Of a stretch of 64,000 nucleotides of DNA, positions 9,569 through 38,165 are shown one piece after another. The stretch lies in the NCBI RefSeq assembly GCF_988242995.1, contig NZ_OZ547043.1. One strand, given 5' to 3'. Position 1 is the first letter of the stretch; every line of letters begins with the position of its first letter. The notes under the pieces were generated by a model that was not told where the DNA came from, searched no databases, and worked only from the letters and a program-made list of their open reading frames with translations. The translations under genes were made by a program, and so were the position numbers.

Positions 9569-10573
9569 ATGCGTAAGTCAGTTATCGCGATTATCATCAT
9601 CGTGCTGGTAGTGCTTTACATGTCTGTCTTTGTCGTCAAAGAAGGTGAGCGCGGTATTACGCTGCGTTTTGGTAAGGTACTGCGTGACGATGACAACAAA
9701 CCTCTGGTTTATGAGCCGGGTCTGCATTTCAAGATACCGTTCATTGAAACGGTGAAAATGCTCGACGCACGTATTCAGACCATGGACAACCAGGCCGACC
9801 GCTTTGTGACCAAAGAGAAGAAAGACCTGATCGTCGACTCTTACATCAAATGGCGCATCAGCGATTTCAGCCGTTACTACCTGGCAACGGGTGGTGGCGA
9901 CATTTCGCAAGCGGAAGTGCTGTTGAAACGTAAGTTCTCTGACCGTCTGCGTTCTGAAATTGGTCGCCTGGACGTGAAAGACATCGTCACCGATTCCCGT
10001 GGTCGTCTGACCCTCGAAGTACGTGACGCGCTGAACTCCGGTTCTGCGGGTACAGAAGATGAAGTTACTACCCCGGCAGCAGATAACGCCATTGCCGAAG
10101 CGGCAGAGCGCGTAACGGCTGAGACGAAGGGCAAAGTTCCGGTCATCAACCCGAACAGTATGGCGGCGCTGGGTATTGAAGTTGTCGATGTGCGTATTAA
10201 GCAGATCAACCTGCCGACCGAAGTGTCTGAAGCGATCTACAACCGTATGCGCGCCGAGCGTGAAGCGGTAGCGCGTCGTCACCGTTCACAAGGTCAGGAA
10301 GAAGCGGAAAAACTGCGCGCGACTGCCGACTATGAAGTGACCAGAACGCTGGCTGAAGCTGAGCGTCAGGGCCGCATCATGCGTGGTGAAGGCGATGCAG
10401 AAGCAGCCAAACTGTTTGCTGATGCATTCAGTAAAGATCCGGACTTCTACGCATTTATCCGTAGCCTGCGTGCTTATGAGAACAGCTTCTCTGGCAATCA
10501 GGACGTGATGGTCATGAGCCCGGATAGCGATTTCTTCCGCTACATGAAGACGCCGACTTCCGCAACGCGTTAA
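9569..10573 (+). CDS. hflC: FtsH modulator HflC (SPFH/band-7)
   Basis: 334-aa ORF immediately after hflK (2-bp gap). Confidence 0.95.
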   Translation: MRKSVIAIIIIVLVVLYMSVFVVKEGERGITLRFGKVLRDDDNKPLVYEPGLHFKIPFIETVKMLDARIQTMDNQADRFVTKEKKDLIVDSYIKWRISDFSRYYLATGGGDISQAEVLLKRKFSDRLRSEIGRLDVKDIVTDSRGRLTLEVRDALNSGSAGTEDEVTTPAADNAIAEAAERVTAETKGKVPVINPNSMAALGIEVVDVRIKQINLPTEVSEAIYNRMRAEREAVARRHRSQGQEEAEKLRATADYEVTRTLAEAERQGRIMRGEGDAEAAKLFADAFSKDPDFYAFIRSLRAYENSFSGNQDVMVMSPDSDFFRYMKTPTSATR

Positions 10574-10602
10574 TATAACGACTGCGGTACAGGTCAATAA
10601 AG

Positions 10603-10640
10603 CCACCGCATCCTCAGGGATGTCGGTGGTTTTCTTTTTC
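10603..10640 (+). terminator. rho-independent terminator after hflC
   Basis: Hairpin ccaccgcatcc/ggatgtcggtgg followed by ttttcttttt. Confidence 0.6.
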
Positions 10641-10654
10641 TATAAGGATAATGA

Positions 10655-10852
10655 ATGAATTCGACAATCTGGCTGGCGCTTGCCCTGGTTTTGGTACTGG
10701 AAGGTTTAGGGCCGATGCTTTACCCGAAGGCATGGAAGAAGATGATCTCTGCGATGACCAATTTGCCCGATAATATTTTACGTCGTTTTGGCGGTGGACT
10801 TGTGGTTGCGGGCGTTGTGGTCTACTACATGTTGAGGAAAACGATTGGCTGA
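10655..10852 (+). CDS. yjeT: small inner-membrane protein YjeT (DUF2065)
   Basis: 65-aa hydrophobic ORF. Confidence 0.85.
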   Translation: MNSTIWLALALVLVLEGLGPMLYPKAWKKMISAMTNLPDNILRRFGGGLVVAGVVVYYMLRKTIG

Positions 10853-10933
10853 ACAAAAAACAGACTGATCGAGGTCATTTTTGAGTGCAAAAAGTGCTGT
10901 AACTCTGAAAAAGCGATGGTAGAATCCATTTTT

Positions 10934-10949
10934 AAGCAAACGGTGATTT
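10934..10949 (+). promoter_or_regulatory. candidate PurR operator upstream of purA
   Basis: aagcaaacggtgattt resembles PurR box ANGCAAACGTTTNCNT; sits 7 bp before purA ATG. Confidence 0.4.
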
Positions 10950-10952
10950 TGA

Positions 10953-12254
<1,302 letters not shown>

Positions 12255-37502: not shown

Positions 37503-38165
37503 TCACTCACCCGCCAGTGCGCGCGGGAACAGCACATTATTTTCCAGGCTGATGTGCTCCATCAGGTCATCAATCAGTTCATTAATGCCGTTATACATCG
37601 CTTTCCAGGTGGTGCAGGCTTCCGGCGGCGGTGTGACGTTATTGGTAGTGTGTTTGATTACTTCCAGCAGTTCACCCGCTTCATCGTGCTCGCTTTCCAT
37701 TACGCTGATTGGCCCCATTGCCTGGCTGCCCATGCCTTGTTTGATCATCGGGAAGAGGATCTGCTCTTCTTTCATCATGTGGCTGGAAAGCTCTTCATGC
37801 AGCATAGTCAGGTATTTTGTCAGCCCTTTTGGCACGCTCGGTTTGTCGGCGTGAACGCGTTCGACTTTAGTCGCTTGCAGGATCAGCTCCGGCAGTTGCT
37901 CGCGGTGACGATCGTGGTAGCGCACGATGATATGGTCGATGATTTCTGCCAGCGGGGCGCTACGCCAGTCTTTCTCAATCGGTTGTTCAGCAAGCTTTGC
38001 CAGCTCAGCTTCAATGACCTCAACATCCAGTTCTTTACGTGCCGCCGCACGCGCCAGCGTTTGCTTACCGCCGCAGCAGTAATCCATATCATATTTACGA
38101 AACAGAGCCGAAGCGCGAGGAATAGAGAGCGCCAGTTCACCTAAAGGTTGGTCGCGATAAGCCAT
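37503..38165 (-). CDS. ytfE: iron-sulfur cluster repair di-iron protein YtfE (RIC)
   Basis: 220-aa ORF, ScdA N-domain and hemerythrin-like His/Glu motifs. Confidence 0.95.

Follow-up and report, generated by a model that had tools for sequence, protein, structure and literature searches.

Repression of purA by PurR is already known; it was described in 1994 and is recorded in RegulonDB. PurR represses the gene two- to threefold by way of two operators (He & Zalkin 1994, J Bacteriol 176:1009), and two PurR sites are listed for the purA regulatory region in RegulonDB (PMC3505978). In ChIP-chip experiments the PurR signal at purA reached log2 1.19 when adenine was present and was lacking in its absence, and no purA motif is listed at P<1e-4 (PMC3159470). 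A structure-based study placed the two purA operators as the weakest cognate sites and termed the PurR regulation of purA controversial (PMC2577325). In a 2024 review purA is treated as an exception to PUR-box control that is repressed by MarA, and Schneiders et al. 2004 is cited there for direct MarA repression (PMC10912719).

A full-text literature search with both of the site sequences discussed below, on both strands, returned no match. Nothing further that was specific to the purA promoter or operator, or to RegPrecise, was found in the literature, and the same held for a mapped purA transcription start and a published site list. The 1994 work reportedly measured two- to threefold purR-dependent regulation of purA and is said to have defined two operators in the 5' flank, which bind PurR in vitro and are both required in vivo. 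It is also said to have described an additional twofold control of purA that was purR-independent and possibly post-transcriptional, and which the purA 5'-flanking region reportedly did not confer. The 16-mer considered here, AAGCAAACGGTGATTT, we take to be one of the two purA operators of that work and of later site lists.

Gene context of the purA locus

The window, the whole stretch of 64,000 nucleotides that was analyzed, contains the hflK-hflC-yjeT-purA-nsrR-rnr region of E. coli K-12. A 501-bp stretch around purA is identical to MG1655; among 5,426 complete genomes of E. coli it is present in 5,425, with yjeT and purA annotated; the purA ORF, with its ATG at 10956, is annotated as adenylosuccinate synthase in these 5,425 genomes. 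Over the 71 bp from the -35 region to the ATG, 5,395 of the 5,425 are at least 99% identical. The features of the control region are collected in Table 1. A hairpin resembling a terminator and followed by a T-run lies at 10608-10633, after hflC and before yjeT.

Table 1. Features of the purA control region, in window coordinates. Equivalent positions in MG1655 (U00096.3) are given for the two boxes (offset 4,393,731).
Feature	Position	Strand	MG1655 equivalent	Basis and remarks
Proximal PurR-like box AAGCAAACGGTGATTT	10934..10949	+	4,404,665-4,404,680	Sequence, matrix and half-site scores, conservation
Distal PurR box AGGAAAACGATTGGCT	10835..10850	+	4,404,566-4,404,581	15.9/16.5 bits, p ~1e-6, rank 1 in the 64-kb window
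purA CDS (adenylosuccinate synthetase, 432 aa)	10956..12254	+		ORF and RefSeq annotation; regulated gene
yjeT CDS (DUF2065, 65 aa)	10655..10852	+		ORF and RefSeq annotation; distal PurR box in its 3' end
Extended -10 TGgTAGAAT of the purA promoter	10917..10925	+		Read from sequence and conservation
Weak -35-like hexamer CTGTAA	10897..10902	+		17 bp upstream of the -10; within conserved block AAAAAGTGCTG
purA Shine-Dalgarno GGTGA	10942..10946	+		9 nt before the ATG; forms the right half of the flagged box

The purA promoter and ribosome-binding site

A consensus scan of 10560-11000 returned no sigma-70 promoter because the -35 hexamer is weak, and the purA promoter was therefore read from the extended -10 element and its conservation. 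Genome loci for comparison were chosen by PurA protein and include 11 Enterobacterales, in all of which TAGAAT is invariant and the TG is retained; the -35-like hexamer reads CTGAAA in most relatives, compared with CTGTAA in the window. From the promoter geometry, the purA transcript would start at about 10931-10934, which would leave a predicted 5' UTR of only about 22-26 nt. A block AAAAAGT(G/A)CTG (10889-10902 in the window, AAAAAGTGCTGTAA) overlaps the -35 region and is near-invariant across Enterobacterales. On its reverse strand GCAC can be made out by eye, and the remaining marbox consensus fits poorly.

The initial annotation had placed a PurR-box-like motif directly upstream of the purA start, and this location is exact: the flagged string aagcaaacggtgattt occupies precisely 10934-10949 and spans -22 to -7 relative to the ATG. 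The proximal box lies 8 nt after the -10 hexamer of purA, the promoter of a pur gene, and would cover roughly +1 to +16 of the predicted transcript.

The distal box in the 3' end of yjeT

The strongest PurR match of the window, which the initial annotation had overlooked, is the distal box. It takes in the final codons of yjeT together with the stop and is located 121 nt before the purA ATG. The two boxes are 99 bp apart, centre to centre. In Enterobacteriaceae-type sequences the distal box is conserved at the nucleotide level and its position is fixed, and the changes within it fall at PurR-degenerate positions; they keep or improve the PurR match even though YjeT residues alter (a change of AGG to ACG, for example, improves it), and such variation is what would be expected of a real operator. 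The ChIP-chip coordinate, 227 bp upstream of the purA ATG, is nearer to the distal box, although the resolution of the method cannot separate the two boxes (PMC3159470).

Apart from these two boxes, no sequence over the 300 bp preceding purA exceeds 0.6 bits, which leaves the proximal box as the sole candidate for the second site. Together the distal and proximal boxes make two candidate sites, in agreement with the two sites in RegulonDB (PMC3505978) and the two weak operators of the structure-based study (PMC2577325). Elsewhere in the window, PurR-like sequences were found at 38051-38066 (AAGCAAACGCTGGCGC, 12.6-14 bits) and at 50710-50725 (AGGTCACCGTTGGCGT, 11.4-14.2 bits by matrix), but both of these mid-scoring matches fall within coding sequences, those of ytfE and tamB, respectively, and are probably due to chance. 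Looping between the purA boxes was considered but is not supported: the spacings of 99 bp in the Enterobacteriaceae type and about 59 bp in the other type described below amount to 9.4 and 5.6 helical turns, so that the boxes are out of phase in either type, and PurR is dimeric.

Match of the proximal box to the PurR motif

An oriented and a symmetric weight matrix were built from the 28 in-vivo-bound PurR motifs of Cho et al. (2011) (PMC3159470, Table 1). With the oriented matrix the proximal box scores 7.3-7.6 bits (7.27; p=1.2e-4) and ranks 23rd among 128,000 window positions, with about 16 equally good matches expected per 64 kb. With the symmetric matrix it scores 3.7-4.0 bits (p=7e-4) and ranks about 130th, and about 89 such matches are expected over the same length. 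These scores are below those of all 28 training sites, for which the oriented minimum is 11.8. In leave-one-out scoring the oriented minimum drops to 7.38, so that the proximal box falls just under it, at the bottom edge of real sites, while the symmetric minimum of 7.58 compares with 3.7 for the box. The chance of one such match within the yjeT-purA spacer is 2-12%.

The two halves of the box differ sharply. On the left, AAGCAAAC reaches 10.1 bits (p=1.5e-4 among 8-mers), which is above 66% of true half-sites, and the central CG lies at 10941-10942 (positions 8-9), C8 being present in 56/56 true halves. At -6.4 bits, the right half (reverse complement AAATCACC) is below all 56 true half-sites, each of which has at least 3.4 bits. 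In the PUR box, the imperfect 16-bp palindrome to which PurR of the LacI/GalR family binds, both halves approximate A(C/G)G(C/A)AA(A/T/C)C, and here the right half departs from this pattern; the central CpG and the position in the control region of a purine-metabolism gene, both typical of PUR boxes, are present. It had been claimed that the motif matches most positions of the operator consensus. This claims too much: the box agrees with ACGCAAACGTTTGCGT at 10 of 16 positions, and 125 window positions are as good or better. The weight-matrix scan that had been proposed as a check gave a borderline to sub-threshold score, close to the low value that was to count against the site, with only one good half. 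By sequence alone the proximal box is no better than chance, and it gains its meaning from its position at a pur promoter and from the published experiments. A consensus or weight-matrix scan on its own would miss it and pick out the distal box in the 3' end of yjeT instead.

With such scores, the resemblance could be incidental, the 16-mer being simply the initial transcribed region joined to the Shine-Dalgarno sequence, and PurR acting only through the strong upstream box. The negative right half, which coincides with the GGTGA of the Shine-Dalgarno, the 16-89 equally good matches expected per 64 kb, and a ChIP-chip coordinate nearer the distal box all point in this direction. Yet repression exerted solely from a point about 90 bp before the start is not easily achieved, two purA sites are listed in RegulonDB, and the proximal box has no competitor as the second of them within 300 bp upstream of purA. 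The operators of the 1994 work, moreover, reportedly numbered two, bound in vitro and required in vivo. We consider an incidental resemblance, the main rival of the reading preferred below, rather unlikely.

Conservation of the control region

A near-invariant block, TG(G/T)TAGAAT(C/T)C(A/T)TTTTTAAGCAA(N)C...GTGA, is common to 11/11 Enterobacterales, from Escherichia to Photorhabdus and Providencia. Its invariance runs from the -10 to the Shine-Dalgarno and includes TTTTT, which lies outside the box, as would suit an incidental resemblance. Among the more distant gammaproteobacteria no convincing box was found at purA. In the distant halomonad Larsenimonas salina, AAGCAAACGGTAGAGA (L054:1477-1492) precedes the purA ATG by 24 nt and resembles the E. 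coli left half-site, a single case that is possibly due to chance.

A metagenome scan with TAGAATYCNTTTTTAAGCAA yielded 90 distinct purA upstream sequences; the scan pattern fixes AAGCAA, so only box positions 7-16 are informative. Position 7 is freely variable (T 44, A 34, C 12; n=90), and the PurR motif is just as degenerate there. Of the 90 sequences, 76 retain the central CG; it is lost in the other 14 (CCTGG, ATAGG, ATTGG, ATGGG, TCAATGG, CCAGG) with GGTGA retained, and GGTGA/GAGTG is kept even in sequences that have no central CG in the proximal box.

Upstream of the promoter, a PurR-like box of at least 5 bits is present in 78/90, and relative to the -10 hexamer it is confined to two fixed positions. 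One of them, at -84/-85, is the E. coli arrangement, in which PurA starts with MGNN and the box lies inside the yjeT end. At the second, -45, PurA starts with MGKN and the box, ACGCAAACGTGTGCTA and variants of it, abuts the -35. Examples of the -45 type are L008:1421-1436 and the metagenome loci L151, L178, and L150, with the box 45 nt upstream of TAGAAT. The MGKN lineages (Pantoea, Yersinia-like) carry a different upstream palindrome, (A/G)CGCAA(A/T)CGT(A/G)TGCTA, and the yjeT-end box is absent from them. The two fixed positions look like ordinary binding-site turnover among lineages of the Enterobacterales. That PurR controls purA by way of a strong upstream box is well supported, and within this order the control is conserved, with turnover of the site. 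The remaining 12/90 have no upstream box, and several of these have a proximal 16-mer identical to that of E. coli. One metagenome contig (L176) has an E. coli-type purA promoter in which the identity begins about 60 nt before the -10; its upstream part is unrelated sequence without yjeT and the distal box. This junction may stem from a rearrangement or insertion, or from a chimeric assembly.

The proximal block is kept where the CG is destroyed and where the upstream box is missing, and PurR alone therefore cannot explain its conservation, a further point for an incidental resemblance. Conservation of the block is at least partly independent of PurR. Nor does it testify to PurR binding, since the block is at the same time the transcript start and the ribosome-binding site.

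The depth of this conservation also bears on a different explanation, in which the block would serve an RNA-level or initiation-level, purR-independent (possibly post-transcriptional) adenine control of purA, for example through a 5'-UTR element or through initiating-nucleotide sensing at the T-run/AAG start. Conservation of the block goes deeper than that of either arrangement of PurR boxes, and the twofold purR-independent control reportedly seen in 1994 is left unexplained. However, no Rfam match at E<=1 was found in 10300-11300, the fold of the 5' UTR with the first part of the coding RNA is no better than those of shuffled sequences (z=0.14), and a UTR of some 22-26 nt would offer little room for a structured element; the 5' flank, too, is said not to have conferred the purR-independent control. 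Because of the missing Rfam match and the absence of unusual RNA structure we do not favour this explanation and hold it to be very improbable. Slightly less remote, and still doubtful, is the broader proposal that the conservation of TTTTTAAGCAA(N)C...GGTGA marks a PurR-independent element, whether for start-site or initiating-nucleotide sensing or as a translation-level signal. It is suggested because the block survives the loss of the CG and of the upstream PurR box. If true, such an element could underlie the purR-independent adenine regulation, and the PurR half-site would be secondary or incidental.

The proximal box as a probable weak operator

The reading that we prefer is that the flagged 16-mer is a weak, promoter-proximal PurR operator of purA, one of the two reported in 1994, and on balance this is probably correct. 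Binding at two sites and repression are taken from the literature, and we infer that the 16-mer is one of those sites. By itself the distal box, with its centre about 90 bp before the start, would scarcely be able to repress, and the proximal box puts a half-site and a CpG at the very point where repressor and polymerase would clash; therefore the proximal operator is the reading adopted. In its favour we count the good left half, the central CG (retained in 76/90), an oriented score level with the weakest leave-one-out motif, the place of the box 8 nt after the -10 of a pur promoter, the distal box as a second candidate 99 bp away, PurR occupancy of the purA region in vivo only when adenine is given (PMC3159470), and the fact that the varying position 7 is also degenerate for PurR. 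Counted against it are the right half at -6.4 bits, the 16-89 equal matches per 64 kb, the lack of a ChIP motif at P<1e-4 (PMC3159470), a block conserved without the CG (14/90) or the upstream box (12/90), the review that denies PUR-box control (PMC10912719), and the label "controversial" (PMC2577325).

As a working mechanism, PurR with hypoxanthine or guanine would occupy the strong distal box at 10835-10850 and, more weakly, the proximal box, and the two would act together. On the proximal box the repressor may overlap the RNA polymerase footprint and so hinder open-complex formation or promoter escape, a presumed steric mechanism. A clash of this kind would fit the modest two- to threefold repression. 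The purine-dependent repression that the initial annotation had proposed is published for purA and stands for the gene. For the flagged site it is weakened by a borderline score, by the stronger distal box that was missed, and by a conservation that does not track the integrity of the box. Beyond annotation, the significance of the proximal site is slight.

Comparison with known PurR operators

The closest counterparts are the published E. coli purA operators, which belong to the same gene in the same organism and likewise comprise two candidate sites in the 5' flank, with no known difference. With the canonical 16-bp PUR box (purF, purT, purM; ACGNAAACGTTTGCNT) the proximal site has in common a left half-site, a CpG at the centre, and its location at a purine-gene promoter, but it is without dyad symmetry and its total score is below those of all 28 in-vivo motifs. 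The operators of purR and purB lie at or after +1, that of purB being a roadblock operator, and the proximal purA box would likewise be placed at or after +1. The former two are situated deeper in the transcribed region, whereas the purA box abuts the -10. Unlike it, the purR (AGGTAAACGTTTGCCT) and purB (AGGTAACCGATTGCGT) operators are near-consensus palindromes (PMC3159470). With purR, which is autoregulated through two operators, purA finally shares the presence of more than one PurR site per gene (PMC3505978).
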